Assembly (NCBI GenBank): GCA_964499705.1
Contig: CAZCME010000013.1
Coordinates: 45,217 to 109,216, forward strand
Origin: an uncultured bacterium
Lineage (GTDB): Bacteria; UBA8481
Length of the DNA stretch: 64,000 nucleotides
Direction of reading: 5' to 3'
The notes below the pieces were generated by a model that saw only the letters and a program-made list of their open reading frames with translations, was not told where the DNA came from and did not search any database. The position numbers and the translations under genes are program-made. Position 1 is the first letter of the stretch. Every line of letters begins with the position of its first letter. This document shows, piece after piece, positions 2,201-45,069 of this stretch.

Positions 2201-2228
2201 GGGGACATTCTCCAACATTCCAACATTG
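2201..2228 (-). repeat. 28-bp REP-like repeat, copy 1 (reverse orientation of CAATGTTGGAATGTTGGAGAATGTCCCC)
   Basis: Exact GGGGACATTCTCCAACATTCCAACATTG immediately after the stop of the kinase-like gene; inverted partner lies 67 bp downstream. Confidence 0.8.
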
Positions 2229-2295
2229 GCAATATTGAAGTTCACAATCCTTCCATGGAACTTTCCTTCGCAAAAGCACGTAACTCCTTCTGACA

Positions 2296-2323
2296 CAATG
2301 TTGGAATGTTGGAGAATGTCCCC
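2296..2323 (+). repeat. 28-bp REP-like repeat, copy 2 (CAATGTTGGAATGTTGGAGAATGTCCCC)
   Basis: Exact reverse complement of copy 1; together they form an inverted doublet with a 67-bp spacer (2229..2295). Confidence 0.8.
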
Positions 2324-2433
2324 TGTCTCCACTTCGCGACAGTCTGTTCGGATTCCAACGACACTAAAACTTACATAAACCAAGTTTGACCCATTGAAAT
2401 TACACCATTTGCGCGAATCCCATCCATGGCACA

Positions 2434-2766
2434 ATGATTGCTCTTATGTCCTGCATGATGCTCAAACAGACCCTGGAGGGACATGACATGATTCTCAATC
2501 CACCGCTCGATTCCTTTTCGCACACGCACGCCTCGGACCATGCAGAACGCCAAAACCTGTATCGCGAGCTTCTGACCGTCACGTGCGGCATCGATCTGAT
2601 CGGCGTCATCCTCATCATCGCGGGGCTCGTGAAGTGGTCGTATTTTCCGAGCCCGCATCTTCTGGAGACGCTCTTTCTGGGAGCCTGCGTCTTCTTCTCG
2701 GCGGGGGTCGCGCTCTGGGCGCTGGGAAATCGAAATACGGAATTCGAAAAGCTCACAGAGGTTTGA
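2434..2766 (+). CDS. Hypothetical small membrane protein
   Basis: ORF 2434..2766 with a hydrophobic stretch (IDLIGVILIIAGLV...LGACVFFSAGVALWAL); no recognisable motif; start uncertain. Confidence 0.35.
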   Translation: MIALMSCMMLKQTLEGHDMILNPPLDSFSHTHASDHAERQNLYRELLTVTCGIDLIGVILIIAGLVKWSYFPSPHLLETLFLGACVFFSAGVALWALGNRNTEFEKLTEV

Positions 2767-2807
2767 ATCGCCGGGGGGCGGAGACGTTCTTCGCCTCCCG
2801 CGGTTCC

Positions 2808-3341
2808 TTAGCGCGGTACCATGATGAATGGCAGGTTGCGATAGCGTTCCTGCCAGTCTAGACCGTACCCCACGACGAACTTGTCCTCGATGACGAATCC
2901 CGTGTAGTCCACCTTGACGTCCGTCTTGCGGCGGCTCGGCTTGTCGAGAAGCGAGCAGATCCTGATGGATTCCGGATTTCGGACGGACAGGATCTGCTTC
3001 AGGTAAGACCATGTGAGGCCGGTATCGACCACGTCCTCGACCATGAGAAGATGCCTGTTCTCCAGCGGCACGACGATGTCCTTGATGATCCGGACAACGC
3101 CGGAGGATTTCGTGGAGATGCCATAGGACGAGACGGAAATGAAATCGATCTCGATGGGAAGATGAATTTCGCGGACGAGATCCGCGAGAAAAACCGAGGC
3201 GCCCCTCAAGATGCCGACGACGAGGAGATCCTTGCCGCGGTATTCCTGGGTGATCGTTTCTCCCAACCTCTTGACGGCACCCCTGATCTGATCCTCGGTG
3301 ATGAGGACTTCTCCGATGACGTCATCCGCCCAACTCACCAT
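2808..3341 (-). CDS. hpt: Hypoxanthine phosphoribosyltransferase
   Basis: ORF 2808..3500 trimmed to the internal Met at 3341 (MVSWADDVIGEVLITEDQI...). PRTase motif LLMVEDVVDTGLT and overall Hpt-like sequence; lies downstream of tilS as in many bacteria. Confidence 0.85.
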   Translation of the reverse strand: MVSWADDVIGEVLITEDQIRGAVKRLGETITQEYRGKDLLVVGILRGASVFLADLVREIHLPIEIDFISVSSYGISTKSSGVVRIIKDIVVPLENRHLLMVEDVVDTGLTWSYLKQILSVRNPESIRICSLLDKPSRRKTDVKVDYTGFVIEDKFVVGYGLDWQERYRNLPFIMVPR

Positions 3342-3423
3342 GTTTGTCGCCTCCAGGATTGAAGTATGGAGGATGAAGGGCGACGAAGACAATGCCTCTT
3401 TTCTTCCTTCCAACGTGACTTCA

Positions 3424-4866
3424 TCACGCCGCGTCCGGACTCTCCGACTCGACCGGAGCCCGCTCCACATCGATACGCAACACCCGCGTCGTCGTCTCAT
3501 GGATCCGGGTCCGCTCGTCCTGCTTCAGGCCGATGACCCAGAGGATTCCTTCCTCGTCGCACAGGATCGGCCAGCGGTCCCGTTCAAGGAGCGAAATCTT
3601 CTCGTCGATGAAGATATCGTGCAGCTTCTTGGATCCCTGCATGCCGAAGGGCCGGATGCGATCGCCCTCGCGGCGCGTCCGGACGACCAGTCCGCCGCGA
3701 ATCGCGGAGCGATCGAAGAAAGCCGAGTCGCGGAGCACGCCCTCGGAAACGACGCGGAGCGAGCGGGGGCGGAATTCCTTCACGCCCGGGCTGTGCGACG
3801 CAAGTGAACACGTCACACTCAGAGAAAGCGGCGCGATCCGCGTGAGACCGTTCTCCTCCACGGGGAATACACCTTTCACGAGCGGCGAGACCTCAGGTGG
3901 ATGACCGATGACGAACGTCCTGCGGAAACGGCCTTCGACGTAGGCGAATAATTCGCCGGCCACGCTGACGCGTTTTTCATCGGCAACGACCCCGGCGAGA
4001 AGTTCAAGGAGCTCATATCCCGGAGCGACGCCGAACTTGACGAGGACGAGCTGGAAGACCCTGGCCCGAAGCGCGGGATGCAATTGCCGCAGGGATTCCA
4101 GTTCCCGCTCCAGTCGGCCGCCCGCCTCCCGCCACTTCCCCAGCTCCTCCGCCGCATGCGCCTCCAGGTAATCGTCCTCCCCGCGGATGATCTCCGCGGT
4201 CCGGCAAAGCCCGTCGATCAACTGGGGATTGCCGTGCTCCATCAGGAACGGCAGCACCTGGTGGCGGATCCTGTTCCGGGCGAAGACGATTTCCGCGTTG
4301 GTCGGATCGTCTCGGTGCGACACGCCCTGCGCTTCCGCGTAGCGGATGATCTCCGCGCGGCGCACCGAGAGGAGCGGCCGGAGAATAAGGAGCCCTCCGG
4401 AATTCCGGACGGGCGGAATGCCGGCCAGGCCGCGGATTCCCGTTCCCCGCAGGAGGCGGAAGAGCACGGTCTCCGCCTGGTCATCGGCATGATGCGCGGT
4501 CACGACCGCATCGAGGGCAAGCTTCCGAGCGGCGCGCTCCAGAAAGGCATATCGCGCCTTCCGCGCCCATTCCTCCACGGATCCTTCCCGCGACTCGAGC
4601 GTTCTCTTCTCGGAATGAACTTCCAGGCCGCATTCCCGCGCCGCCTTCTCGACGAATTTCCTGTCTTCGTCGGATCCGGGCCGCAGGTCATGGTCGAAAT
4701 GGAGCACAACGGGGATGAACAAGGATCGGGAGGCGAGGCGCCGGACGACATGCAGGAGCGTCATCGAGTCGATGCCGCCGGAGACCGCCACGCCCAGGCG
4801 CGCCGGCTTTCCATCGGGCAGATGCTCCGCCAGAAACGCCTCCACGATCTCGACCATGCCCTTCAT
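3424..4866 (-). CDS. tilS: tRNA(Ile)-lysidine synthetase
   Basis: ORF 3424..4866; N-terminal PP-loop motif VAVSGGIDSM and HHADDQAETVLFRLLRG region typical of TilS. Confidence 0.85.
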   Translation of the reverse strand: MKGMVEIVEAFLAEHLPDGKPARLGVAVSGGIDSMTLLHVVRRLASRSLFIPVVLHFDHDLRPGSDEDRKFVEKAARECGLEVHSEKRTLESREGSVEEWARKARYAFLERAARKLALDAVVTAHHADDQAETVLFRLLRGTGIRGLAGIPPVRNSGGLLILRPLLSVRRAEIIRYAEAQGVSHRDDPTNAEIVFARNRIRHQVLPFLMEHGNPQLIDGLCRTAEIIRGEDDYLEAHAAEELGKWREAGGRLERELESLRQLHPALRARVFQLVLVKFGVAPGYELLELLAGVVADEKRVSVAGELFAYVEGRFRRTFVIGHPPEVSPLVKGVFPVEENGLTRIAPLSLSVTCSLASHSPGVKEFRPRSLRVVSEGVLRDSAFFDRSAIRGGLVVRTRREGDRIRPFGMQGSKKLHDIFIDEKISLLERDRWPILCDEEGILWVIGLKQDERTRIHETTTRVLRIDVERAPVESESPDAA

Positions 4867-4943
4867 CCCTGATGATCATATCACGTTCTTTATCGCTCCA
4901 AGTCAACATGGCGCGAGCGCGGAGAATCCCTATAATCGACCCG

Positions 4944-6185: not shown

Positions 6186-6366
6186 GCGCATTCGGGCGGG
6201 CGGAAAAAGAAAAACCCCCGGAAGCGAGCGTCGCTCCGAGGGTTTCCTTGTCCCGGAATCCTTGACCCTTTTCAGGGGGCGTTCCGATTCCGAGCTTTAA
6301 ACCTCTGTTCGATTTCAGCGACCTGCTTTACCTTTTAGAAGGGCGGCCGCAACCTGTCCGAACGCG

Positions 6367-8163: not shown

Positions 8164-11031
8164 CTATTGCGCCGTCACAAGGTAATCGCGAAGTGCCTGG
8201 AGCTGCTTTTCCTCGTCCGGCGTTCCGCCGTCGAGGTTGGCGGGCATCCGGACTCCGGGATAGAAGGCGGCCGGGTTGCGGATCCATTTAACGATCCAGT
8301 CCGCGCGGAGCCTCTTTCCGGCGAGCGCCAGGTCGGGAGCCCATGTGTTGGATCCGCTGAGCGGCGTCTTCGCGCCGATGATGTGGCACGTAGTCGCGCA
8401 TCCCAGGTCGTCGACCAGTTGTCGGCCTGCCGCGACTTCCGCGGAAGAGGGATCGGGATGGCGAAGTTCGCTGAGGATCATGGTCGGCGTTTCCACGGCG
8501 GCGAAATAGTAGACGAGCGTGTTCAGCTCCGCGTCCCTGAATCCGAACGACGGCATGCGTACATTCAGCCACGGCCGCGGTCTCGCCATCGCCGGATCAC
8601 GGATGAAGTCGTAGAGCCACTCCGCCCGGATCTTCTGGCCGGTGCTGATGAGATTCGGAGGATTGACGTTCGTGAGCCACGGAGCATCGAAAACATCCGA
8701 TTCGACGCCTTCGTATTTCATCACGGCTTCGCGTATAACGGGCCGGATCGAGCCGCCGCGTCCTTCGATGATATGGCAACCCTGGCAGTTGTATTCGCGG
8801 ACGAGCCGCTGGCCCTGTTCCACGACGAGGTTCTTCGGGGTTCTCGGGAACATCTTCTCCGCCTTCACGCTGGGCTTCACGAATCCGACGATGGCCGTCA
8901 CGACCGCGTCGATCTCGGTGTCGGAGAGATCGAAGTTCGGCATCCGGAGCTTATCCAGCGGCGCAAGAACCCGCTCACGGTCGAAGATCCTCGGCTCCTT
9001 CAGCTTCTGCGTGAACCAGTCGTAGTTGTTATGGCCGATGTCATGAATGTAGCCGAAATCGAGCTTGGAAACCGGCTTGGAACCTTCCTCCGTCAATTCG
9101 GTGCCGATCGGCATCGCGGTGTCGAATCCGGGGATCTCGTGGCAGCCGAAGCAGCCATACGTGCCTATCAGTTTCCGGCCGGTGAACTCGAGCTTCTGCG
9201 CCTGAGAACTCTTTTCGATCGTCTCTTTCGCCTGGGCGTTCGTCATGTTCTTCGCGAGAAACTCCAGCATGATTCCATTCAGGATCTTCTCATCGAGGGG
9301 AGGAATCTCCGTGTTGAACTCCTCGTTCCTGTTCTGCATCAGGTACGCCGTGACATCAGCCGCTTCCTGATCCGTCAGTCTCAGATCGGGCATCCTCGTA
9401 TTGGGCGAGAACGCATGAGGATTCCTGATCCAGTTGTAGACCCAGTCGGCGGAGGTCTTCGTCGCCAGTCCCGTCAGCTCCGGCCCCTGCATTCTCCGTA
9501 TCATGTCCGACGTCGTGTTCGTCCTTATGAAGGCCGATCGATCCTTGTCAAAGTGCGTCTTGTCTTCCTGCAGGTGGCATCCGTAGCAGCCAGTCGTCGC
9601 GAGGATCTTTTCGCCGCGGGCCGGATCGCCGGGCATCGCCATCGAAGCCATCGCATGCGTATCGCTGAACTGGAAGAGGTAGGCGACCATCGCGTGGATT
9701 TCCTGGCGGGATCGAGCCTTCTGTTCGTCGGAGCTGTTGTTCGACTGATCGAAGAACCGCGGCATCCACGTGTTATGGCGGAAGCTCTTCGGGTTCAGGA
9801 TCCACCGGTACGTCCAATCCTTGGACGTCTTCGCGGCGATCTTCCTCAGCGACGGGCCCGGCTTCGACCGGCCCAGGTAGCGGGAGATGTTATGGCAGCC
9901 GTAGCATCCGGCCTTCTCGATGACCTGGAGGCCCAGGTTCAGTTTCTCCGCGCCGCGCAGTTCCGTGGCGTGCGAATGACAGTTCAGGCATCCCGCTTCC
10001 GTGTACTTCGTCGGAAGCATCGGAGTCTCCCAATAGTGATAGAGATACCAGCCGTATTTCGCCTTCCATTCCTCTTCCTGCTCATGTGACGACGGCCTGT
10101 GAATCGACATCAGGAAGCTCGTGCCGCGTCCGCGGCCCAGGTGGCAGCTCGCGCAGCCGAACTCCTCGACCGGATGCGGGGAGGCGCTCGAAAGAAACAG
10201 ATCCAGCTTCGGATGCGTCTTGAAGGGCTGGGCATCTTCCGCGAATTCGGGCCTCATGAGGCCCTGGTGGCAGGTCTGGCACCGGTCGACGCTCGGGACG
10301 CGGAGAAAGTTCAGGTTGTCGGTGACGTCAGGAACGACGACTTGTTCGATCTTGTAGGACGGGTTGAGGAAATCGAGAAGCGGCATGTCGCGAATGGCGT
10401 TGCCGATCTTCGCGAGGAGGCTCATGTTCTCCGGATCCATGTTCGCCAGTTTCCTCTGGAGAACGGCGGCCTTCCTGGCCAGCGCGGCGGCGGAATCGTT
10501 CAGAGCGCGGATGGCGTCCTGCTTCTTCATCATCTCGGCGGAGGCGCTCTCCAGGTCCGTCGCGGCCTTCTCGTTCTTCAGGCGCAATGCTTCCATCTCG
10601 CCGAAGAGCTTGTCCATCTCCGCCTTCTGCTTCTGCCCCTCATGCCCGTGGCCGCGTTGGTTCTCGTAGCGATATTTCGCGGCTTCGTACTCCGATTTGC
10701 GGAACTGGTAATCCTGGTTCGCCTTGTCGCTGACGGCCTTCAATTCCGTGATGGTTTTCGCAAACTCCTGGCTCACCATCTTCCGGATTTCCAGGTCCGC
10801 CTCCACCTGAGCGACCGCGTCGACCGCGTTCTGCAGGTCGGCGCTGGAGAGGACATCGCGCGTCTTGGAGATATCGAGCTTCCTGAATTCGCGCTGAAAG
10901 TGTTTCCATTCGCGGTCGTAGTCGTCCACGAACATCCAGATGAACGTGGCGAACATGATGATGCTCGATATCGCGAAGACCCGGTTCACCCGGGACATCA
11001 CGTAATATCTCTGCTCGCCCTTCTCCGCCAC
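8164..11031 (-). CDS. Multihaem c-type cytochrome (about 8 haem-binding sites), bc-complex associated
   Basis: 955-aa ORF with CxxCH motifs CQTCH, CASCH, CLNCH, CYGCH (twice), CFGCH, CQGCH and one CxxxCH (CATTCH); N-terminal TM segment followed by a coiled-coil-like region. Confidence 0.8.
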   Translation of the reverse strand: MAEKGEQRYYVMSRVNRVFAISSIIMFATFIWMFVDDYDREWKHFQREFRKLDISKTRDVLSSADLQNAVDAVAQVEADLEIRKMVSQEFAKTITELKAVSDKANQDYQFRKSEYEAAKYRYENQRGHGHEGQKQKAEMDKLFGEMEALRLKNEKAATDLESASAEMMKKQDAIRALNDSAAALARKAAVLQRKLANMDPENMSLLAKIGNAIRDMPLLDFLNPSYKIEQVVVPDVTDNLNFLRVPSVDRCQTCHQGLMRPEFAEDAQPFKTHPKLDLFLSSASPHPVEEFGCASCHLGRGRGTSFLMSIHRPSSHEQEEEWKAKYGWYLYHYWETPMLPTKYTEAGCLNCHSHATELRGAEKLNLGLQVIEKAGCYGCHNISRYLGRSKPGPSLRKIAAKTSKDWTYRWILNPKSFRHNTWMPRFFDQSNNSSDEQKARSRQEIHAMVAYLFQFSDTHAMASMAMPGDPARGEKILATTGCYGCHLQEDKTHFDKDRSAFIRTNTTSDMIRRMQGPELTGLATKTSADWVYNWIRNPHAFSPNTRMPDLRLTDQEAADVTAYLMQNRNEEFNTEIPPLDEKILNGIMLEFLAKNMTNAQAKETIEKSSQAQKLEFTGRKLIGTYGCFGCHEIPGFDTAMPIGTELTEEGSKPVSKLDFGYIHDIGHNNYDWFTQKLKEPRIFDRERVLAPLDKLRMPNFDLSDTEIDAVVTAIVGFVKPSVKAEKMFPRTPKNLVVEQGQRLVREYNCQGCHIIEGRGGSIRPVIREAVMKYEGVESDVFDAPWLTNVNPPNLISTGQKIRAEWLYDFIRDPAMARPRPWLNVRMPSFGFRDAELNTLVYYFAAVETPTMILSELRHPDPSSAEVAAGRQLVDDLGCATTCHIIGAKTPLSGSNTWAPDLALAGKRLRADWIVKWIRNPAAFYPGVRMPANLDGGTPDEEKQLQALRDYLVTAQ

Positions 11032-11046
11032 GTTCCGTCTTCCTCT

Positions 11047-20355: not shown

Positions 20356-20961
20356 ATGACCATCCGTCCTCCCGCCTTCGAACGCCTCGTCGATGCCCTG
20401 TCGAGATTCCCCTCGATCGGCCCCAAGACTGCCGCGCGGATCGCGCTCTGGCTTTTGAACCAGCCGCCGGAAGCCAGCGAGCGGATCGCGCGGGCCATCA
20501 CGGAAGCGCGGCAGACAATCAGAAGATGCAGGATCTGTTTCCAGTACGCGGAGGACGAGCTGTGTCCGGTCTGCGCCGATCCGGCGCGGGACAAATCCAT
20601 TCTTTGCGTCGTGGAGGAAGCCGTGGACGTCTGGAGCTTTGAGCGGACCGGGCGATATCGAGGAACCTACCATGTCCTCGGCGGCGCGATTTCTCCATTG
20701 GACGGAATCGGTCCCGACGAGCTGACAGTCCAGGCTCTCTTGGAACGAGTCGCGGATCCCGCGCAGGGAATAGCGGAAGTCATTCTCGCGACCGATCCCG
20801 ACACGGAGGGCAACGCCACCGCGCTCTTCATCGCAGACCACCTGCCGCGGAGCCGCGTCAAGGTAAGCCGACTCGCGCACGGGCTGCCCGTGGGCGGCGA
20901 ACTAGCCTATTCCGACGATGCGACTCTGGCGGAAGCTCTGGCGGGTCGACGGATTTTATGA
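20356..20961 (+). CDS. recR: Recombination protein RecR
   Basis: 201-aa ORF with C4 zinc finger (CRICFQYAEDELCPVC) and Toprim-like region (LCVVEEAVDVWSFERTGRYRGTYHVLGG); divergent from flgF. Confidence 0.9.
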   Translation: MTIRPPAFERLVDALSRFPSIGPKTAARIALWLLNQPPEASERIARAITEARQTIRRCRICFQYAEDELCPVCADPARDKSILCVVEEAVDVWSFERTGRYRGTYHVLGGAISPLDGIGPDELTVQALLERVADPAQGIAEVILATDPDTEGNATALFIADHLPRSRVKVSRLAHGLPVGGELAYSDDATLAEALAGRRIL

Positions 20962-21142
20962 ATCGACACCGGAAGCGAAACTGGCGGACGCAAGGGCCTG
21001 CGCACTTCTCCCTGGGCCTCTGCACCGAGTGGGCTCGATCTCTTTCGTCCGCAATTTTCATGAGACGAGGAGACACGCGTCTTGTGCGCCGGTTTCACCT
21101 CATATAGGATCGATTCTCGTTCAGCAGGGAGGAAAAAGTAGA

Positions 21143-23584
21143 ATGAGAAACAACGCTTCATGTTCGACGTTCCGAATTCGATATTTATTTCTGTCAGGTT
21201 ACTTACTCGCCCTATTCGCAGCGAGTGATACATCCGCCGCCGCGCTGATCTTTCCGGATTCGCCAGGACCGGTTGCCGACAAGGTATTCGGGCAGCCGGG
21301 TTTCATAACCAACACCGCCGGAACATCTCTCGATCAGATGTCTGGCCCTTCTGATATTCTTTTCGACTCCGTCGGTCGGATGTACATTGCGGACCTGAAC
21401 AACGACCGTATTCTAATCTTCGCAAACCAAGACGATACAAGGGCCGATTTTGTGATAGGCGGGCCAATCAGTGGCGCGTTGCCAGGTCTTACCGGGGTTC
21501 CTTCTGGCGCGGGGGCCGATAGGCTGAATGCTCCAACGTTTCTCGCTCTCTTTGACGGCCCGGACACCTCCGTGTTGTTTGTATCCGAACAGTTGAACCA
21601 GAGGGTTCTCGGTTACATCTTAAGGCAACCTGGGTTTTCATTTCTCAGCGACACGCTGGCAGACTATGTCTTTGGGCAACCCACGTTTGATACAAACGTT
21701 ATTTCCAACAATGGCACAGGGGCCTCGTTACTTTCTGCCGTTGGACTTCGGAATCCGGCCGGACTTTCAATCCTGGATACTGGAGCTTCCACGATTTCGC
21801 TTTTCGTTGCGGATAGAACCAACTTGCGTGTTCTCCGGTATGACATCAATAAATCCCTTTTTGGTCTCCCCAATAGCAGCATGGATACAATTCCGGATGA
21901 GTTGTGGGGACAACCCGATTTTATGACTTCCGAACTAACTTTTGCCGTTTCGCGAGAAATCATTAGAGGGCCGCTCGGTGTAGCTTCAACGCCGGACAGG
22001 TTATTCATTGCCGCGGTACAGCCGAGGGTCGTAGTCGAATCTCTCACCGATCCCGACACTTCTTTTGACGGAGTTTATGGTCAGCCCGATTTTACATCTC
22101 AGACTGCCGGAAATGACACCACCTCGCTCGCTTCGCTTTTCTTATCGGTGGCGATAGGTCCAACAAAAAATGTATTAGCGATCATAGACAGGCAAAATCA
22201 TCGTATTCTACTGCACACCGATACTTCAGGCGCAGATATCATTCCCGATGATATTATCGGCGATACGAACTTCGTGGCACCCGTTCTTACCGGACCAAGC
22301 GCACAGTCGCTGCGTCTCCCAACCGCAGCTTATTTCCGATCCGACTCTGAAGTTTGGGTCACCGATTTCGGCAATAATCGCGCCCTGAGATTTGACCGCG
22401 GCTCCAACAACACGCCTGTTGGAAATAATGTGAACGTGACGGAATCGTTTGCAGTCCAAGGATTCCTGGTTACTGTGAAATTCGCATCAGTTTCGCAGGC
22501 GGGCAACACCGAGATCAGGTTACTCGACTCGATCCCACCGCTCGGAACAGATTTCCGCCTGACGAGCGATTCACTCTGTCCATCTTCCGATAATATGATC
22601 TTCCAGATCGGAACGACTGCGATCTTCACAACGGCTCAAGTGACGATCAATTTCAATGATAATGCCTGCCTGAAAAGCCTTTCGGTTCCCAATAAACTGA
22701 GCCTTGAGATGTTGCATTTTGACCTAATCCCGCCAGACCCGGACACCGTGACGTTCGGTAATGCTAATCCGGGAACAAATGAGATCAAAAGCATCGATCT
22801 CACCACGCTTTCGCCCTTTGTCGTCGCGGAGAAGATCTTTCGCGATCTCACACCGCCGACTATCACAATCGAAATCGAGAGCGGACATGTTTTTCATAAC
22901 TACGACGAGCCGGTTTTCAAGCCCAAGTCATTTGTGACGCTCAGCGCGACGGACAGCTCCGGAGTTTCCACGTTTGAGTGGCGGATCGATGATGGCGAAT
23001 TCCAAAGCTACTCCGAACCGTTCCAGATTGGCGAGAGCGTCGCGCGATCGAAGGGGGCGAATCCGAAGTCTGAAACGCACGTTCTGACAGCGCGAGCAAG
23101 CGACGTCTTCGGTAATACAGAGGAAACGCATCTCATATTCCGACTTGCGTCAAACGGACAACCGCGCGTTGATCGCAGCGTGCAGAACCTCACTATCCAA
23201 AGGGGAACTCTTCACATTTTCTCGATGCTCGAAAGCATTCAATTCGACCTCGGAGAGGAGATCGTTCTCACCATTGTATATGAGAATTCGCAGGATGTTT
23301 ACCGGCCTAACAATCCAAACCCGACGCCCGATGGAGGACAAACGATCGTCAGCATTTTAGATTCCCTTGGTCGCGAAGTCCATTCGCAAAGACGACACCC
23401 CGATCCTGATCCCGCGAAAGTCACGATCGGTATGGGCGAGAAATTAACCTACTCCTATTCCGTCATTTCGAAGATGTTTCCAAATGGTCTGCCTGCGGGT
23501 CGATACACCCTTGTGATTCAGTTCCGCGGCGAGTTTGCCGGACATCATGCATTCGAGGTAATGGACGATGACAGCGTCAAATAA
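21143..23584 (+). CDS. Secreted NHL-repeat beta-propeller protein with C-terminal beta-rich extension
   Basis: ORF 20918..23584 trimmed to Met 21143 (GGGAGG Shine-Dalgarno 10 nt upstream; signal peptide MRNNASCSTFRIRYLFLSGYLLALFAASDTSAAA). Repeated GQPGF/GQPTF/GQPDF and (A/S)DxxNxR(I/V)L motifs; gene is visibly lower in GC than its flanks. Confidence 0.75.
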   Translation: MRNNASCSTFRIRYLFLSGYLLALFAASDTSAAALIFPDSPGPVADKVFGQPGFITNTAGTSLDQMSGPSDILFDSVGRMYIADLNNDRILIFANQDDTRADFVIGGPISGALPGLTGVPSGAGADRLNAPTFLALFDGPDTSVLFVSEQLNQRVLGYILRQPGFSFLSDTLADYVFGQPTFDTNVISNNGTGASLLSAVGLRNPAGLSILDTGASTISLFVADRTNLRVLRYDINKSLFGLPNSSMDTIPDELWGQPDFMTSELTFAVSREIIRGPLGVASTPDRLFIAAVQPRVVVESLTDPDTSFDGVYGQPDFTSQTAGNDTTSLASLFLSVAIGPTKNVLAIIDRQNHRILLHTDTSGADIIPDDIIGDTNFVAPVLTGPSAQSLRLPTAAYFRSDSEVWVTDFGNNRALRFDRGSNNTPVGNNVNVTESFAVQGFLVTVKFASVSQAGNTEIRLLDSIPPLGTDFRLTSDSLCPSSDNMIFQIGTTAIFTTAQVTINFNDNACLKSLSVPNKLSLEMLHFDLIPPDPDTVTFGNANPGTNEIKSIDLTTLSPFVVAEKIFRDLTPPTITIEIESGHVFHNYDEPVFKPKSFVTLSATDSSGVSTFEWRIDDGEFQSYSEPFQIGESVARSKGANPKSETHVLTARASDVFGNTEETHLIFRLASNGQPRVDRSVQNLTIQRGTLHIFSMLESIQFDLGEEIVLTIVYENSQDVYRPNNPNPTPDGGQTIVSILDSLGREVHSQRRHPDPDPAKVTIGMGEKLTYSYSVISKMFPNGLPAGRYTLVIQFRGEFAGHHAFEVMDDDSVK

Positions 23585-23729
23585 TGGCAGTGAAACTTCT
23601 TACATAACAATTGCGGACCAGATAGATCCTGTATTATACTGGTTTCGGATAAAGGGCATCAGTCGTTACTGACCCTTATCCTTGTTCCAGGATTCCATTG
23701 ACTGTGAACAATATTGCATCGGAGCTGAA

Positions 23730-24788
23730 ATGAAGCGCGTCGAACCCGCCTTGGTCAACGTGAAATTCGCGAAATTCCCGACGCCAACTGCTGCCGTTCT
23801 TGAGCTGACGAACAGATGCAACGAACAATGCATTCACTGCATTCGCGAATCACCCGATCTACGATTCGACGACGAACTTGCGACCGCCGAATGGCTGAAG
23901 GTCGTTGATGATCTTGCGGACATCCGTACTTTTTCCGTATGTCTGACGGGTGGAGAGTGCACGATCCACCCCGGGTTCCTGGAAATCATCGACCGATGCC
24001 GAAGCCATCGCATTAATGTGTCGATAAAGACAAATGCACTTTCGTTGGCGCGAATCGCGCCGATGCTAGCGCGCAAGGGAGTCGGATTCATTGAAATCTC
24101 GCTGTACGGCGCGACACCGGAATCGCACGATCGGTGCACCCGGATTTCCGGTTCATTCCAGCGTCTCGTCGAGGGTGTCAAGGCGGCGAGAAAAAACGGT
24201 ATTCCAGTCTCCATGAACGCGATTGTCTTTCGATGGAATGCTCATGAGGCTCTTGCGATGCGCCGGCTTGGCCAGGAACTGGATTGCCCGATCAAACGCG
24301 ACTTCATGCTCTCGACCACCGATCTTGGCAGGCACCTCGATCTGGAATTGGTGACGTCTGCCCAGATTCGAGAAATCGAGTCGATCTGGCCCATGAACAC
24401 GCTGCCGGGCGCGCAGAACCGTCTTTCCCGGGTAAAAATCTGTACTCAGGGCATGAACACAGTCTGCGTAACCGCGCGTGGCGAAGTACTTTCATGCGTC
24501 ACGATCCGCAAGCCGCTCGGCAACGTCAGAAAAAATGGCCTCGCCGATACCTGGCTCACCACGACGGGAGGTCACAGCGGTGCAGCCCGGCGAGCGCATG
24601 ACGTGGACTACGGGAATTTCACTCGCTGCGAAGCGTGCAAGCATCTTCCGGTCTGCAGCGTCTGCCTGGGACAAAACTTCGCCGCCACCGGCAGCTTTTA
24701 CGAACCTCCCCTTGAAAGATGCTTTATTACCATGTCATTATTCGGTAACAAGGAAGGGATGGAAAATGGAAAGGAAGTCCATGCGTAA
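23730..24788 (+). CDS. Radical SAM enzyme with C-terminal SPASM/twitch-like cysteine cluster (putative peptide maturase)
   Basis: ORF 23682..24788 (TTG) trimmed to ATG 23730 with GGAG upstream. CNEQCIHC (Cx3Cx2C) radical SAM cluster near the N-terminus; C-terminal CEACKHLPVCSVC auxiliary-cluster motif. Confidence 0.8.
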   Translation: MKRVEPALVNVKFAKFPTPTAAVLELTNRCNEQCIHCIRESPDLRFDDELATAEWLKVVDDLADIRTFSVCLTGGECTIHPGFLEIIDRCRSHRINVSIKTNALSLARIAPMLARKGVGFIEISLYGATPESHDRCTRISGSFQRLVEGVKAARKNGIPVSMNAIVFRWNAHEALAMRRLGQELDCPIKRDFMLSTTDLGRHLDLELVTSAQIREIESIWPMNTLPGAQNRLSRVKICTQGMNTVCVTARGEVLSCVTIRKPLGNVRKNGLADTWLTTTGGHSGAARRAHDVDYGNFTRCEACKHLPVCSVCLGQNFAATGSFYEPPLERCFITMSLFGNKEGMENGKEVHA

Positions 24789-32241: not shown

Positions 32242-32649
32242 TTGAGCAAGCCCTCGACCGTCCTCGCCGTCGACGCCGGCACGGTCCGGATCGGCTTGGC
32301 GATTTCCGACGAGACCGGCACGTTTGCATTTCCCCTCGAAGTCATCCCCGCAAAAAATGCGATTGCGCGAATCAAGGCGCTCTGCGAGGAGCGCACGGTG
32401 ACGCAGGTGATCGTGGGACTGCCGCTGACGATGAAGGGAGACATCGGCCCCGAAGCCGCGCGTGTGGAGAAGTTCATCCGGAAACTTCAGCGCGCTCTTC
32501 AACCCCTGCCCGTGACCGCCGTCGATGAACGGCTCAGTTCACTCGTGGCGGACCGTATTCTCGAATCCGGCAAGGGACACCCAAAGCGCGACGCCGTGGC
32601 GGCGGCGGTGATACTGGAGAGCTATCTGAAGACGATCAATGACAAATGA
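32242..32649 (+). CDS. ruvX: Putative pre-16S rRNA nuclease / Holliday junction resolvase-like protein (RuvX/YqgF)
   Basis: 135-aa ORF (TTG start in track) with VLAVDAGTVRIGLAISD... and VIVGLPLTMKGDIGPEA; canonical position downstream of alaS. Confidence 0.8.
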   Translation: MSKPSTVLAVDAGTVRIGLAISDETGTFAFPLEVIPAKNAIARIKALCEERTVTQVIVGLPLTMKGDIGPEAARVEKFIRKLQRALQPLPVTAVDERLSSLVADRILESGKGHPKRDAVAAAVILESYLKTINDK

Positions 32650-32719
32650 CGAATGAACAACGACTGATGAACAATTCCTGATTGTTCATCAGTCGTTGTT
32701 CATTCGTCATTTGTCATTG
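32637..32719. terminator. Perfect 39-bp inverted repeat with 5-nt loop; candidate bidirectional terminator
   Basis: Arms 32637..32675 and 32681..32719 are exact reverse complements (loop TCCTG). The arms contain the last codons and stops of convergent ruvX and asnB, so both proteins end in NDK. Confidence 0.5.
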
Positions 32720-34617: not shown

Positions 34618-34629
34618 GGGGGAAGAATA

Positions 34630-34657
34630 GGGGACATTCTCCAACATTCCAACATTG
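34630..34657 (-). repeat. 28-bp REP-like repeat, copy 3
   Basis: Exact GGGGACATTCTCCAACATTCCAACATTG; on the minus strand it ends 12 nt upstream of the asnB ATG. Confidence 0.8.
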
Positions 34658-34826
34658 AGGATGAAGGAGTTATGGAATTCATTCCTAAAGGAATCATGAA
34701 AAGTTCATCATCATCTCGCGGGAAAATGCATCTGGGATATTTTTCAAGGCTGGAATCGCTGAAAATAGGGTCCAACACGCGAATGCGTCTGAGTTTTCAT
34801 CGTTTCAACCCCGATAAAATCCAGAC

Positions 34827-35849
34827 CTAAACGACTAACTCCTGCTGCGTCAATGTTGGAATGTTGGAGAATGTCCCCCTGATTGCTTCGGCAAGGGCTC
34901 CTTTGCGCCTGTCTTTTCGCATGCGAGAAACGATCATCGAATAATAACCATTCGGGTGGCGATCGCCGTCCTCATGCTGGATACGGTCGTAGGTCCAGCG
35001 GGCCAGCTCATGCGCAATGTAGATCGTGAGTTCGCGGTGCATCGCCTCGATCGACGACCATGCCTGGCGGCGCATTTCGGATGTGGCCATGACGAACCGG
35101 TCGGCCATCTGCTGAAGATCGCTCCAGGACCACGACACGGCGTCGCGGTCCATCGTGCGTCGCTTTCTGGTTTCTTCGAACCGCTGACGGCGTTCCGTCT
35201 GGAGTTCGATACGCTTTCGAAATAGATGCGAGCTCATGAAACGGCCGTTATGGCCCTCGCGAAACAGTGTTTCGTTGGATTCTGCGTTGAGTTCATTGAA
35301 CCATCTGTCCAATACGCCCAACTGTTTAACATGATCGAAGGAGGAGATGTTCTTTCCGAAGAGTTGCTCGGCGAGCAGATGCCGGTCGACGCGATTTCTC
35401 TGGGTTCCCATGCCCAGCATTTCCCGCGCACTGCACCAAGGATAAAGAAGCGGATCGCGTACGAAACCGGCACGGACTGGATTGAGGATGATGTAGGCGA
35501 CGACGGTTTCAAAGTAGGACTCCGTCTCGATGACGAGCGACTTCGATCTGCCCTGGAAGAGGTGGCCGGTCCGGTCGTGGCGTCGGTTGAGTTCCTGAGA
35601 GGCGCGCGTCAAAAATCGCCGCAGGAATTCCGAAATGTCGCCGCCGGGCGTTCGAAGGCAGAAATGAAAATGATTCGGCATGAGACAATAGGCATACGTG
35701 ACGACGCGAAACATCTTTGCCGACTCGAAATAGAGATCGAGAAATCGACGGTAATCGGACTCGTGCTGGAAGAACGGGTGCTTGTCGACGAAGCGATTGA
35801 GGACGTGGTAGACGGCGTCCTTGTAGGCGATGCGTGGACCTCTGGACAT
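34827..35849 (-). CDS. IS200-like Y1 (HUH) transposase, REP-associated tyrosine transposase (RAYT)-like
   Basis: 340-aa ORF; HUH motif CLMPNHFHFCL and tyrosine motif VAYIILNPVRAGFV align by eye with the PEHMHCIW and YIYINPVK regions of E. coli RayT; N-terminal AVYHVLNR. C-terminal codons read through a repeat copy. Confidence 0.75.
   Translation of the reverse strand: MSRGPRIAYKDAVYHVLNRFVDKHPFFQHESDYRRFLDLYFESAKMFRVVTYAYCLMPNHFHFCLRTPGGDISEFLRRFLTRASQELNRRHDRTGHLFQGRSKSLVIETESYFETVVAYIILNPVRAGFVRDPLLYPWCSAREMLGMGTQRNRVDRHLLAEQLFGKNISSFDHVKQLGVLDRWFNELNAESNETLFREGHNGRFMSSHLFRKRIELQTERRQRFEETRKRRTMDRDAVSWSWSDLQQMADRFVMATSEMRRQAWSSIEAMHRELTIYIAHELARWTYDRIQHEDGDRHPNGYYSMIVSRMRKDRRKGALAEAIRGTFSNIPTLTQQELVV
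34851..34878 (+). repeat. 28-bp REP-like repeat, copy 4
   Basis: Exact CAATGTTGGAATGTTGGAGAATGTCCCC; inverted partner of copy 3 with a 193-bp spacer; lies inside the last ~17 codons of the transposase ORF. Confidence 0.8.
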
Positions 35850-35860
35850 GGCGATGTCTC

Positions 35861-36202
35861 CTATCGGCTTGCGGTGCGGTCGAAATAGTCGCGGACGATG
35901 TTACGGAAGCGTGTGGATCGATGAGGAAGTTCGGCGAGCCATCGCATGTATGTCGGGTCGCGCCGGCTGATCTCCTCGAGCGACCGGCCGCGATGCTTGC
36001 CGAACGCGATTCGATGCGACCTGCCGTGGGGAATCAAACCGGATCGCTTCCGTTCGAAGTTATCGCTGCAGGCGGCTGAATAGACCTCGTCGGCCTTCCG
36101 GAAGGCTTCGTCTTCCGATAGGCCGATACTTCTGAAAATTCCGAATGCACAGGCGCGATCCTGCTCCGGGCTGGTCACTTTCCGCCGATCCTGTTTCGCC
36201 AT
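35861..36202 (-). CDS. Small protein with exodeoxyribonuclease X C-terminal-like (DUF3820-like) motif
   Basis: ORF 35861..36373 trimmed to Met 36202 (MAKQDRRKVTSP...); IAFGKHRGRSLEEISRRDPTYMRWLAEL resembles the FGKYKG...DP.YL.WL motif of that family (recalled, not searched). Confidence 0.45.
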   Translation of the reverse strand: MAKQDRRKVTSPEQDRACAFGIFRSIGLSEDEAFRKADEVYSAACSDNFERKRSGLIPHGRSHRIAFGKHRGRSLEEISRRDPTYMRWLAELPHRSTRFRNIVRDYFDRTASR

Positions 36203-36286
36203 TGTGGTCTCCTTTCGTGATTGAGTGTCATACAGAGCAGAAGTTGTGCCGGCAGAAGTGCTTATTTTCCAGCAAGAGCATATCCG

Positions 36287-36332
36287 GAAAAGTGTCGAAT
36301 CCTGGACACATGTCCAGAATTCGACACTTTTC
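36287..36332. promoter_or_regulatory. 46-bp imperfect dyad symmetry, candidate operator
   Basis: GAAAAGTGTCGAAT-CCTGGACA-CA-TGTCCAGA-ATTCGACACTTTTC; 14-bp outer arms perfect, inner arms 7 of 8; located ~85 bp upstream of the small gene preceding the transposase. Confidence 0.3.
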
Positions 36333-36551
36333 ACGCACAGGATTCTCAGGATCAACAGGATGAAAACCGGCAAATCATATATTTTGAACGTTCATCCTAT
36401 CCTGTGGATCCTGCTCAATATTGAAGCGAAAATAATATTTGCAGTGGCTATAGAGCTCGGGTATTGACTACGGGGACAGATATTTCTTGGATTGGAGCGC
36501 AGCCAGGATTTTGACTGCCGGCTGCAAAAATGTGTTCTATGATGAAAATGG

Positions 36552-37496
36552 ATGAAAATGGGCCGTCCAATCACTTTTCAGTTGTTGATTGGATCTATTC
36601 TTTTACTTTTTGCCGACGAAGGTCCCGCCGGAATCTGCCTTCTCTATTTCAGTCAGAACATCGCTACTTTTGGTCGAATTGCGTTTCATTCACGATCCAG
36701 ACGAATGATCGCGCTCGGCCTCATTCTTATTTTGGTTCAGATATTTTTTTGCATGAAACTTTTCTTTGCTCTCACGCTAGACACATTCGAGTTGCTTCTT
36801 CGCAACAACTTTATTCCTGCCGTTTTCGTTTTCTTCCTCGAAGGTGCGACAGTCGATGAGGCAATGGCGAAGCGCGCCGGCTTTTGGATCTTTCTAATTA
36901 ACTGGGCGATTCTCTCGGCCGGTATGATTGCGTTTGCTCGACTAAAAGCTGAGCACCACCTTCAATTCGCTATCATTGCGTTGGTAGCTCTCTGCAAAGG
37001 ACTGTCGCAACTGGCGCCAACATTGCGTGAAAACCGCAAGCGAACTCCGTTTGGGCACGCGGCATACGGGGTACTCGTTCTGATAATGCTATTCGGTTTC
37101 TATCACACAATTGGAAGCGAGCGTCCATCTGTTGATTACGCGGGCGCGCTTGAACGTGCATTAACGACAGGCGATTCAGAACAAGCGATTGCGCTTTTGC
37201 AATTAACCAATCCTTCCGGGCAAATCGTGGTCGCCCACCAGGTCGACGGCACACCTGCAATCGAGCTCGCGCTGCAATCTCAGTTGCCGCAGGTTCGCAA
37301 AGCGGCAATTAGAACGTATGAGGTCTGGATGATCAACGCCGTCGATCGGGATCCATCCGATCGTGATGACCTTGAACGTCGCTACAAATCTCACATGACC
37401 CCGCTACTGTCCGATCCTGTATCAAGAATTCAAGAACTGGCGAGGGAAGCATATGAAAATCCAAAAGGCTATTCGGGATGGAGAAGCCCGTTCTAA
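36552..37496 (+). CDS. Hypothetical membrane protein with C-terminal helical-repeat region
   Basis: 314-aa ORF in an AT-richer stretch; several hydrophobic helices then a soluble C-terminal part (ALLQLTNPSGQIVVAHQVDGTPAIELALQSQLPQVRKAAIRTYEV); start uncertain. Confidence 0.45.
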   Translation: MKMGRPITFQLLIGSILLLFADEGPAGICLLYFSQNIATFGRIAFHSRSRRMIALGLILILVQIFFCMKLFFALTLDTFELLLRNNFIPAVFVFFLEGATVDEAMAKRAGFWIFLINWAILSAGMIAFARLKAEHHLQFAIIALVALCKGLSQLAPTLRENRKRTPFGHAAYGVLVLIMLFGFYHTIGSERPSVDYAGALERALTTGDSEQAIALLQLTNPSGQIVVAHQVDGTPAIELALQSQLPQVRKAAIRTYEVWMINAVDRDPSDRDDLERRYKSHMTPLLSDPVSRIQELAREAYENPKGYSGWRSPF

Positions 37497-37627
37497 TTTT
37501 CGTGACTGTGAAAGGAGATATTCTCTACATTCCTACATTTAAATAAATGAGTTGCAGAAGCGTCATTCCGGCGAATACAAAATTTGCATTTGCTCTGAAC
37601 AACTGCCTTCTCTAACTCCATCATCCT

Positions 37628-37655
37628 CAATGTTGGAATGTTGGAGAATGTCCCC
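37628..37655 (+). repeat. 28-bp REP-like repeat, copy 5
   Basis: Exact CAATGTTGGAATGTTGGAGAATGTCCCC ending 14 nt upstream of the STAS gene ATG. Confidence 0.8.
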
Positions 37656-37669
37656 CTATACTCCCTCTC

Positions 37670-39477: not shown

Positions 39478-39535
39478 TTCCCGGTCATGGCTCATCATTT
39501 CCCGTCGTCAATTCCGCGAAAGCGGGACTGACGAA

Positions 39536-40237: not shown

Positions 40238-40247
40238 GGCCATGCTC

Positions 40248-41003: not shown

Positions 41004-41012
41004 TCAGGAAAT

Positions 41013-42509: not shown

Positions 42510-42590
42510 GCGCCGATAATACAGTGTCAGGCCGCCTCATTGCCATATTCAATGTGGTCATGTGACGGCCCGGCATCGTAGAATGCCGGC

Positions 42591-44138
42591 ATGAAATGGA
42601 ACAGCTACGATTTCGTTCTCTCCGCTGACGCCCAGTGGAACGGCGCGAGCCAGGATTATATCCGCGACCTCCGGGAGTATCGCCGCGCCGATCTGAAGAG
42701 CGAATACCAGACGATCGTCTCTCCGGAACTGCATCGACTGTTGCCTCGACGGGCCGGACGAACGTTCGAGTCGGCCGACCAGAGCACATGCGTCCGGGTC
42801 AGGGCGATCGACCAGCGGATCGGATTCCCGGCGGAGTTCTTCCAGTGCATGCTCCAGAAGCCCCAGCACTACGTCGACTACCACAGCCGGCATCCGGCAT
42901 TCATGAGCCTCGTGCGGAACAATCACGCGAAGCTGAACGAAATCCTGGACGCGGGATTCCGCGCCTATTACGCGCGCGGCGTCTCTCCCGATCATGCGAT
43001 CTACGACGAGATCGACCGGCTCTTCCGCAGTGAAGACGCGGAAATGCGCGGGATGCTGAAGGGATACCTCACGCAGAAGCCGCAGCGCGCGATCTTCCTC
43101 ATCGACGTGGAGTCGGCACCGGCATCGCTGCCGTGGCTGGAGCCCGTCTACCAGACGATCAAGCACCACCTGCTGAACTGGGGGATCGACCACATCGCGG
43201 TCCTGACCGGAAAAGGTTATCACTTTGTTACGCAGGTTCCGCTGTATGCGGAACGCGGCATCCACGACGGCAAGGCGCATCTGAACTATGCAATGCTGAA
43301 CCTCATGGCGCGCGGCGGTCCCGTCAAACCCGAGACGCTCGACGGGCTCGTGTCCGTCCGCTGGGGCAGCCGTAAGCAGTCTCCGACGCCCCTCCTGTCG
43401 CAACGCTCCTACCAGGGCATGTGGAAGCTGCAGCAGTTTTTTCTCGTCAACATCGCCGACGACATCCGGCGCCAGCTCTCTCGCGCGAGGATGAATCCGT
43501 GGGTCAACTTCAGCGACACGGAGAAGGAGACCGTCATCCTGGACACGACGAGCATGCTGCGGCAGGTGGAGATGGGCGTCTTCGGCAGCGTCGGAAGCCT
43601 GTACAACAAGAAGAGAAATCCGCCGAAGGTCCGGATCATCCGCAGCCGGAACGGGCACGAATTCTTCCGGAACGACCTGAACTGGATGCTCTCCACGCGA
43701 ACCGATCTCGGCGCCGTGAAGCACCACCTCGTCCACACCGGTGGCCGCATCCCCGACGGCTCGCGTGGCATCGAGAACATGATCCACGGGTATGATTCCA
43801 GCCGGATGAAACGCGAACTGCACGACCCCTGCGACCGACCGCTCTCGCCGGAATGGATCTCCGAGATCTTTCAGTCGAACTACCGCATCATCTGGCAGCG
43901 GTGCCCGGAGATCCTCTCCCACATCGAGCACGCCCAGCCGAATTTCCTGAATCCGTCATGTCTCTCTTATGTCTATCGCCGCCTGGCCGCGCGCGGATTC
44001 TCCGTGCCGGAGATGATGACGATCACGAAGGCGGTGTACTGCGATCCGGCCAAGAACGTTCAGATCGACGGCAAGTATTCAAAGGACGAATGGTGCCGGT
44101 GGCCCGAGCTGCTGCTGGGAGAGTGGTTCAAGGGGTAG
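42591..44138 (+). CDS. Hypothetical protein, 515 aa, no recognisable domain
   Basis: Long ORF with genome-typical codon usage and non-repetitive composition; several His-rich segments (WGIDHIAVLTGKGYHF, HHLVHTGGRIPDG) but no motif I can assign. Confidence 0.55.
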   Translation: MKWNSYDFVLSADAQWNGASQDYIRDLREYRRADLKSEYQTIVSPELHRLLPRRAGRTFESADQSTCVRVRAIDQRIGFPAEFFQCMLQKPQHYVDYHSRHPAFMSLVRNNHAKLNEILDAGFRAYYARGVSPDHAIYDEIDRLFRSEDAEMRGMLKGYLTQKPQRAIFLIDVESAPASLPWLEPVYQTIKHHLLNWGIDHIAVLTGKGYHFVTQVPLYAERGIHDGKAHLNYAMLNLMARGGPVKPETLDGLVSVRWGSRKQSPTPLLSQRSYQGMWKLQQFFLVNIADDIRRQLSRARMNPWVNFSDTEKETVILDTTSMLRQVEMGVFGSVGSLYNKKRNPPKVRIIRSRNGHEFFRNDLNWMLSTRTDLGAVKHHLVHTGGRIPDGSRGIENMIHGYDSSRMKRELHDPCDRPLSPEWISEIFQSNYRIIWQRCPEILSHIEHAQPNFLNPSCLSYVYRRLAARGFSVPEMMTITKAVYCDPAKNVQIDGKYSKDEWCRWPELLLGEWFKG

Positions 44139-45037
44139 TGCTCACCACGATCACGTTCAGCTCCCGCGACCGGGAGACGGTTCAGGACCTGGACGAACGC
44201 TTCCATCGATCCGATGCCTGCGACCCCTGGGTCAAATCCTTCTTTATCCACGCTTATCGCGATCTCTTCGACGACATCAGGAGCGTCGCGCCGGCGGTCG
44301 CCGTGCCGTACAACTGCGGAACGCTCATCGCCGCTCCCAACGGCAAGCTCGTCGGCATCGACCTGACGCTTCTGGAGAATTATTACGGCGGTCGCGACTG
44401 GAATGTGCCGGGCTGGCTGTACGATCTCATCTCCGACCGTCTCGACGTCCTCATCGTCTCGCACGGGCACTGGGATCATTGCTGGGTGGAACTCATCTGG
44501 AGCATGATCCGGAAGGGCAAGACCGTGATCGTGCCGGAGGGAATCCGCACCTGCGCGCCCAAGTTCCTGCCGCAGGGGTGTCGCGGTGTAGCGGACGACG
44601 CGCGCTTCTGGTGGAACGGGCTCCATTTCGCCTTTCACCACAACAGGCACGTGTACGACGGCGGACGCGGCATGAATGTCCTGACGACGCGCATCTGGGA
44701 CGGCCGGAACGTCTACCTGCACACATCTGATGCGGACCCCACCGACGAGGAGCGATTCCGCTGGCACGATCCTCATCCTGTCGATGTGCTCCTCTTCAAG
44801 TTCGGCGGCGTCTCCCCCTTCGTCTCCGACTACGACGCCCTGGTCCGGACCGTGGACCTGATCTCCCCCCGAAAGCTCCTGCTGCCCATTCACCTGAACG
44901 AATTCGGCCATCGGGGCACGGGAGCCGCTCTGCCGTATGGGCACACGTATGACGTCTTCGAGAGGTATCGCGCGGAGGGTCGGCTCGGGTCGAGGCGGTA
45001 TGCCGTCCTCTTCGGGAACAGGATAGTCCGTCTGTAG
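44138..45037 (+). CDS. MBL-fold metallo-hydrolase-like protein
   Basis: Reading frame of ORF 43853..45037; contains VLIVSHGHWDHCW (HxHxDH) before the first internal ATG, so the start must be the GTG at 44138 overlapping the upstream stop (AAGGGG just 5'). Start uncertain. Confidence 0.5.
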   Translation: MLTTITFSSRDRETVQDLDERFHRSDACDPWVKSFFIHAYRDLFDDIRSVAPAVAVPYNCGTLIAAPNGKLVGIDLTLLENYYGGRDWNVPGWLYDLISDRLDVLIVSHGHWDHCWVELIWSMIRKGKTVIVPEGIRTCAPKFLPQGCRGVADDARFWWNGLHFAFHHNRHVYDGGRGMNVLTTRIWDGRNVYLHTSDADPTDEERFRWHDPHPVDVLLFKFGGVSPFVSDYDALVRTVDLISPRKLLLPIHLNEFGHRGTGAALPYGHTYDVFERYRAEGRLGSRRYAVLFGNRIVRL

Positions 45038-45040
45038 GGA

Positions 45041-45069
45041 GGGGAAATTCTATGTTGGAGAATGTCCCC
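45041..45069 (+). repeat. Degenerate hairpin copy of the 28-bp repeat family, copy 6
   Basis: GGGGAAATTCT-ATGTTGG-AGAATGTCCCC: the right half matches the family consensus (ATGTTGGAGAATGTCCCC), the left arm is its near-complement. Confidence 0.6.

Follow-up and report, generated by a model that had tools for sequence, protein, structure and literature searches.

The window analysed here, a 64-kb stretch of contig CAZCME010000013.1 belonging to a Candidatus Hydrogenedentota metagenome-assembled genome (MAG) from Hainich groundwater, carries a short perfect repeat at several of its gene boundaries, which raises the question of what these repeats are and with which enzyme they belong. An earlier account drawn from the letters of the window (the sequence-only reading) had proposed a dispersed 28-bp family resembling repetitive extragenic palindromic (REP) sequences and their inverted doublets (REPINs), beside a Y1-type transposase. 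TIRtrons, by comparison, are REP-associated tyrosine transposase (RAYT)-like genes flanked by terminal inverted repeats (TIRs) rather than by REPs, the encoded proteins being termed TIRYTs (Di Nocera et al., 2013; PMC3733652). It is probable that the 28-mer is the core of a TIR of approximately 44–48 bp bounding a single-copy TIRtron/TIRYT cassette and that the remaining copies represent the same arms in non-autonomous pairs at gene boundaries. This assessment covers the classification together with a general mode of action; the individual mechanistic steps considered below are held less firmly.

Exact copies of the 28-mer CAATGTTGGAATGTTGGAGAATGTCCCC are present in the window at 2201(-), 2296(+), 34630(-), 34851(+) and 37628(+), just as the sequence-only reading had listed them, with no match in 100 dinucleotide-preserving shuffles and a chance expectation of 0. 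The repeat unit exceeds 28 nt, however, as a repeat finder extended the similarity to approximately 44–48 nt, with eight variable bases inward of the 28-mer followed by a conserved TAACTCC. The arm ends read ...AGAATGTCCCC(T) and CAATG..., the outer end is GGGGACAT and the tandem 8-mer of the arm is AATGTTGG. Similarity between copies stops within 44–60 nt, and flanks and spacers are unique and unrelated, so that the copies are independent and not parts of one duplicated segment.

A profile of the five arms returned an additional, diverged arm at 37513–37540(-), which is identical to the 28-mer at 22 of 28 positions (manual count) and carries the same A-to-T change in both of its 8-mers. It is inverted relative to the 37628 arm, 87 bp away, and the two make up a 143-bp doublet. 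The terminal 15-mer of the arm is found again at 45055–45069, where the exact terminal 15–18 nt of the arm and an 11-nt inverted left arm together give a 29-bp palindrome (45041–45069). This is the degenerate hairpin copy described previously, and it does fold as a small hairpin (-9.2 kcal/mol, z = -4.1). In total the window holds eight arms in four inverted pairs (2201–2323, 34630–34878, 37513–37655 and the collapsed 45041–45069) and no arm lacks an inverted partner. All six copies of the earlier count are therefore real, but the count itself rises to eight with 37513–37540 and the two arms of the palindrome. The spacers between the 28-mers measure 67, 87 and 193 bp, the shortest and the longest as given before, and show no likeness beyond the arms. 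Two of the pairs sit 7 kb and 32 kb away from the cassette, which answers in part, and within the 64-kb window, the earlier concern that the repeat could be confined to one locus.

The placement of the copies at gene boundaries is evident from the stops and starts of the neighbouring genes. The 2201 arm begins within or just past the TAG stop of an ATP-cone/PRK gene, the 34630 arm finishes 12 nt ahead of the asnB ATG, the final ~17 codons of the Y1 open reading frame (ORF) come from the 34851 arm, the 37628 arm finishes 14 nt ahead of the ATG of a STAS-domain gene, and the 45041 palindrome begins 4 nt past a stop codon. The public gene call for asnB starts (MLENVP) inside an arm.

The arms at 34630–34677 and 37608–37655 (48 nt, 94% complementary) bracket the Y1 gene. 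The cassette that they delimit has a GC content of 0.510, the mean of the window being 0.601 (sd 0.031), and is one of the two lowest-GC 3-kb stretches. The Y1 gene is present once in the window, its protein cluster having one member on two contigs, and Pfam scans of ~50 window ORFs found no other transposase family, in keeping with the claim that this is the sole transposase present. The first passenger ORF corresponds over 35861–36202 to a public gene call of 113 aa (L001). The description of the Y1 product as an IS200-like Y1/RAYT enzyme beside a doublet held with regard to Pfam (Y1_Tnp, E = 2.4e-9) and to the doublet, which lies over the 3' end of the gene, but not with regard to the RAYT label, the protein reaching 69.3 bits with the NCBIfam REP_Tyr_transpos equivalog model for RAYTs, under its cut-off of 80.

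An alignment of 26 homologues showed the HUH motif (N59-H60-F61-H62) and Y119 within YIILNP to be invariant, with a C-terminal block likewise conserved. The tail residues 329–340, which overlap an arm, have a predicted local distance difference test (pLDDT) score below 50 and no alignment among the homologues. The best match in a profile search of the sequences in the PDB was Escherichia coli TnpA-REP (4er8), which is also the best solved relative by fold (16.9 for the N-terminal domain, compared with 10.1 for IS608 TnpA, 2vhg), while the C-terminal domain matched DnaA domain IV (1j1v; 8.7, 2.5 Å over 79 residues) and the DnaA DNA-binding domain (3pvp; 8.5). Given these fold matches at either end, the Y1 protein combines in one chain a RAYT-type HUH nuclease and a DnaA-box-binding type of domain. 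Such a C-terminal helix-turn-helix (HTH) domain related to DnaA domain IV is expected of TnpA-Y1 subclass 2.1, which is defined by a C-terminal HTH domain of the Bac_DnaA_C, HTH_23 or HTH_28 kind and has no REP-like structures (Quentin et al., 2018; PMC6006769).

The loci of six homologues with 37–55% protein identity (L008, L009, L011, L012, L023 and L024) were fetched for comparison, and a cognate repeat family adjoins the Y1 homologue in all six (seven loci with the window), which bears out the proposed tie between the repeats and the adjacent Y1/RAYT-like gene. In five of the six the arms flank the gene with the G-rich end outward. These include L008 (CAATGTTGCAAATTTGCAGACTGTCCCCC), which has one solo copy besides, L009 (CAATGATATGTTGATGGGGTGTGACCCCT), which has additional copies, L024 (GATTATTAGACGAATGACCCC), and L011, where two families are present and a doublet occurs at either side of the gene. 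L023 (...GTCACTGCCTGACACC) has instead a doublet spanning the gene's 3' end, in addition to a cluster and a 119-bp doublet, and no arm was found upstream of its Y1 homologue. Extra singles, doublets or clusters are located in nearby intergenic DNA of the homologue loci, and three loci, the window included, have a doublet overlapping the gene's 3' end. At L012 (...TTTCCGCAGTCTGACACC), an inverted arm pair (8995–9768) encloses a complete methyltransferase gene (9073–9669), from which it follows that arm pairs can bracket cargo, like the two passengers of the window cassette. The homologue clusters are singletons on one to three contigs, set among housekeeping genes in varied contexts, and no full-length homologue was found among 72,556 plasmids.

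When eight arm families were aligned ungapped from the outer end, positions 1, 2, 4, 6, 7 and 10 did not vary in any of them, which defines the terminus as GNNTGWCMCC. At positions 12–27 every family has two period-8 repeats, identical within an arm at four to eight of the eight positions, and the 8-mer sequences differ from family to family. TIRs of the published class share a GGGGWSAS motif and their families occur as singles, dimers and groups (PMC3733652). The outer ends of L008 (GGGGACAG) and L009 (GGGGTCAC) fit this motif at all eight positions. The features of the window are collected in Table 1.

Table 1. Cassette, genes and arm-derived repeats in the window.
Feature	Position	Strand	Remarks
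Whole TIR-bounded cassette (probable TIRtron), 3026 bp	34630..37655	-	Encloses Y1 gene and two passenger ORFs; both ends formed by arm doublets
Probable TIRYT gene, 340-aa Y1/HUH tyrosine transposase-like protein	34827..35849	-	Pfam Y1_Tnp
Passenger ORF directly upstream of Y1 gene, ExoX-like C-terminal motif	35861..36373	-	Pfam PF20600, E = 1.3e-7
Passenger ORF, 314 aa, GC 0.49	36552..37496	+	Pfam: no family match
Inverted doublet, 123 bp	2201..2323	.	Exact arms 2201-2228 and 2296-2323; between ATP-cone/PRK gene stop and small ORF
Outer arm, asnB side	34630..34677	-	Exact 28-mer 34630-34657; G-rich end outward
Inner arm of 249-bp doublet	34835..34878	+	Exact 28-mer 34851-34878
Outer arm, STAS-gene side	37608..37655	+	Exact 28-mer 37628-37655
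Diverged partner arm	37513..37540	-	nhmmer E = 0.06; doublet with 37628 arm
Collapsed 29-bp palindrome, two arm termini (11 nt and 18 nt)	45041..45069	.	Upstream of infC

The comparison with relatives that had been suggested earlier was informative at two sites. A relative found in run SRR22388345 (AsnB 88% identical, L021; PRK-like protein 86% identical, L026) retains on the PRK side the order ALAD, PRK, small ORF, hpt, tilS, SBP. Divergence sets in inside the PRK stop codon, where ...AAATACT continues with AGGGGGGGACATT in the window but with GAGCGCC in the relative, and the 162-nt region that follows PRK in the relative has no arm. Ahead of asnB, the relative lacks the cassette and has no perfect arm, and the terminal motif has no match in the 12 kb readable from this relative. 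Arms are accordingly absent at both orthologous sites, and close relatives thus differ in the presence of the arms and the cassette at each of the two sites compared. The PRK-side intergenic DNA of the two genomes is unalignable (local score 17, matched by 80 of 300 shuffles). An empty site was also sought through relatives of asnB, around which gene order is not conserved in either the 88% or the 77% relative. Among the Hainich and Logan contigs with window proteins no strain variation was seen; these represent one strain with the same arms. A stretch of 23 nt (ACAGGGGACATTCTCCAACATT) common to the 2296 arm with its flank and to positions 61–83 of an unrelated low-GC contig (L007), with no Y1 gene nearby, was taken as chance.

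From the parts described above we infer how cleavage, binding and mobility may proceed in a TIRYT system of this kind. The HUH/Tyr domain would cut at the conserved arm terminus (...GNNTGWCMCC, then T), the DnaA-domain-IV-like C-terminal domain would read the two tandem 8-bp subterminal repeats, and these 8-mers, differing between orthologous systems, would set specificity. Arm pairs would be excised and inserted in trans with no target-site duplication, as in HUH single-strand transposition; none was visible at any doublet in the sequences read. A bolder proposal joins three elements, namely a two-part end recognition that would be new for HUH transposases, arms serving as portable -35 modules, and the cassette as an autonomous TIR-bounded Y1 transposon. 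In it, the catalytic domain would act on the family-wide terminus GNNTGWCMCC and the DnaA-IV-like domain on the system-specific 8-bp pair in double-stranded form, and an arm beside a -10 box would drive leaderless transcription of its neighbour (asnB or the STAS gene). Taken jointly, these three are conceivable but we consider it doubtful that all of them hold.

In the classical REP/REPIN–RAYT arrangement, palindromic REP hairpins are read as single-stranded DNA by the RAYT and REPIN doublets replicate as units. Part of the REP-like organization proposed earlier stands: the inverted doublets and their link to a Y1 gene are real, repeats flank the gene, the gene acts as single-copy, and the protein has E. 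coli TnpA-REP as its nearest relative by fold as well as by sequence. RNA folding, which had been put forward as a check, gave long hairpins for the doublets, with z = -7.4 and -8.2 for the two pairs named at that time (-8.2 for 2201–2323) and z = -4.2 for the 37513/37628 pair. The arms themselves are not palindromes, however, as two of three arms folded singly gave no more structure than shuffles did (z = -0.18 and -0.29) and the third exceeds them (z = -4.0) solely through pairing with its own flank. No conserved GTAG or CGTC tag was found at the arm ends in the sequences read; a GTAG ahead of the 45041 copy and an AACTCC/GGAG pairing within the arm were both dropped as candidates, being conserved neither across copies nor across families. 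Rfam returned no family on the repeats, its lone match being a tRNA at 60093. The expectation that doublet spacing would match that of REPINs did not hold, since the spacers of the three doublets differ in length and are unrelated, so that the doublets do not represent a single copied REPIN. The protein misses the NCBIfam RAYT equivalog cut-off, and its DnaA-IV-like domain is the hallmark of a subclass reported without REPs. A classical REP/REPIN system is for these reasons unlikely. The window shares the features of TIRtrons, with an outer end that agrees with the published motif at seven of eight positions, while its unit is not palindromic, neither a GTAG tag nor a common spacer is present and the protein stays below the equivalog score, and it is on this account that it is assigned to the TIRtron/TIRYT class and not to REP/REPIN.

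A promoter or operator role for the arms deserves consideration, because asnB and the STAS gene are both preceded by an arm-borne TTGGAA, 17–18 bp, TATTCT or TATACT, 6–7 nt and the ATG, a layout similar to that of a leaderless promoter; the STAS-side example, TTGGAA-18-TATACT at 37633–37662, overlaps the outer arm. If the arms were regulatory DNA of this type (promoter/operator modules or arrays of transcription-factor sites), they would be identical through selection and not through transposition. The tandem 8-mers do look like repeated protein-binding sites, and the relative has TTGGAT-17-TATCCT-6-ATG at the same asnB position. As this stands in the relative without an arm, at least the -10 box and the start codon are older than the arm. 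Against a purely regulatory origin, five copies are identical at 28 of 28 positions despite unrelated flanks, several arms (2201, 34851 and 37513) face into convergent genes at their 3' ends, and the Y1 gene association at every homologue locus would be left unexplained. The number of promoter-like sites in the region is moreover not above that of shuffles, the scan flagging one arm. We regard this origin as quite improbable, while a secondary promoter role of the arms is compatible with the TIRtron classification. It is less probable again that the doublets are miniature inverted-repeat transposable elements (MITEs) of a DDE-type insertion sequence (IS) located elsewhere in the genome, Correia-like or Tn3-derived, with the Y1 gene a bystander between two ends. 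Perfect terminal inverted repeats of 28–48 bp that begin with GGGG, as do Tn3-family ends, and short elements (123–249 bp) at gene boundaries would fit such MITEs. No target-site duplication is visible at any doublet in the sequences read, however, the Pfam-scanned window ORFs include no DDE transposase, and across six unrelated loci the arm sequence varies in step with the Y1 homologue, next to which it is invariably located, which is unexpected of a bystander. Finally, assembly chimeras or one duplicated block might be suspected in a MAG, particularly as one short contig breaks exactly at an arm. The same arrangement nevertheless recurs, with 99.6–100% identity over matched stretches, in independent assemblies of three replicate samples and also in Logan assemblies, and the similarity of the copies ends within 44–60 nt of otherwise unique DNA, making an artefact or segmental duplication extremely unlikely.

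A number of points weigh against the TIRtron/TIRYT classification favoured here. The unrelated doublet spacers leave the formation of the pairs unexplained, and the window outer end fits the published GGGGWSAS motif at seven of eight positions only, its last base being T and not S. Pfam did not detect Bac_DnaA_C in the Y1 protein, with 2 of the 26 family members matching. No empty site whose flanks could be aligned turned up to fix insertion boundaries or target preference, and the difference from the relative, as judged from the compared sequences, could equally be due to loss. The copy count covers the stretch of the source genome that was read, i.e., the 64-kb window and ~3 kb of flank. An exact 19-mer gave two and three single chance hits, without extension, in two large public contig collections from which the source genome is absent. 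To our knowledge no TIRYT has been tested biochemically, and the literature found for the term reports no TIRYT biochemistry.

The neighbourhood of asnB has further features. Sequences just outside the arms before the asnB and STAS starts (34618–34629 and 37656–37669) are alike (CCCCTATTCTTCCCCCATG vs CCCCCTATACTCCCTCTCATG). Neither lead has a Shine-Dalgarno sequence, and the -10-like box 6–7 nt from each ATG suggests leaderless transcripts. Repeats of different kinds precede asnB in all three genomes compared, those of the window and of two relatives of its source organism, L021 and L022. Those of L021 (630–800 and 829–866) comprise an inverted doublet of (CGCCAAGR)x3 together with TTGGAT-17-TATCCT-6-ATG, the element being identical to the window arm and flank at 26 of 38 positions, and L022 (7247–7295) has 3.5 tandem copies of the 14-mer GTCTTGACACGGGT. 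Within the 249-bp doublet, at 34672–34830, the arm submotif GGAGTTA makes an AAGGAG followed by an ATG and a 52-codon ORF (MEFIPKG...), and the same submotif lies ahead of the Y1 gene start in L008; it may be an arm-borne ribosome-binding site, or this may be chance. Between the convergent ruvX and asnB genes there is a perfect 39-bp inverted repeat with a 5-nt loop (32637–32719), composed of ~5.5 tandem 7-nt units (CAATGAC, AAATGAC, GAATGAA and so on). Each of its arms gives the last codons and stop of one gene, both proteins ending in ...NDK*, whereas the 88% asnB relative has a different asnB end. The repeat has the look of a palindromic insertion from a different family that serves as a two-way terminator.

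Elsewhere in the window, a second low-GC stretch (20918–24788, GC 0.51–0.55) contains genes for an 888-aa protein matching NHL repeats and for a radical-SAM/SPASM protein, and is possibly acquired DNA. The tRNA gene at 60093–60165 is followed by ~4 kb of ORFs (to 64000) with no Pfam match and a third-position GC of 0.59–0.66 compared with ~0.8; this region (60093–64000) may be an integrated element beside the tRNA. In pheS (47313–47334 of the window against L014 5252–5327), one replicate assembly has ~54 extra bases that split the gene call into two ORFs, while the gene is intact (367 aa) in the window and in another replicate, and the discrepancy is probably an assembly difference.

For annotation purposes, the arms account for the short perfect inverted repeats at gene boundaries of this MAG, for spurious N- and C-terminal extensions (the MLENVP start of asnB and the tail of the Y1 ORF) and for contig breaks at arms. 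The window and the six related loci also offer a testable end architecture, consisting of the conserved terminus, the paired system-specific 8-mers and the DnaA-IV-like domain, which points experimenters to the DNA pieces and protein domains worth testing.

In comparison with known systems, Correia elements and other MITEs are likewise short, TIR-bounded, found at gene boundaries and able to supply promoters or terminators, but they depend on DDE transposases and have target duplications, neither of which is seen here. Elements of the IS200/IS605 type (IS608, ISDra2) are multi-copy, with subterminal hairpins, no TIRs and a short transposase without a C-terminal domain, whereas the window has TIRs and a gene that acts as single-copy. 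The REP/REPIN–RAYT systems (4er8; Pseudomonas REPINs, PMC3116915) share with it the enzyme superfamily, the closest fold, an apparently single-copy gene with its own flanking repeats and inverted doublets that give extragenic hairpins; they differ from the window in that its unit is non-palindromic and without GTAG, its doublet spacers are unrelated, and its protein has an added domain of the double-strand-DNA-binding type and scores under the RAYT equivalog cut-off. The window family is genuine and belongs to the already described TIRtron/TIRYT class, which is Quentin subclass 2.1 and largely Bertels RAYT group 1, and which forms a large subclass present in ~15% of strains (Quentin et al., 2018; PMC6006769). 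Common to both are a RAYT-like Y1 gene between TIRs in place of REP hairpins, a G-rich outer end close to the GGGGWSAS type, a C-terminal HTH domain related to DnaA domain IV (PMC6006769), TIRs also present at other sites as singles, dimers and groups, and a gene that appears to be low-copy. In what could be read of the TIRtron/TIRYT papers, a layout of paired 8-mers and then a conserved 11-nt terminus is not set out. Besides its outer end, with seven of the eight bases of the published motif, the window differs in its 3-kb cassette, which is closed off on both sides by arm doublets and carries two passenger ORFs, and in its host phylum, this groundwater MAG extending the TIRtron class to the Hydrogenedentota.

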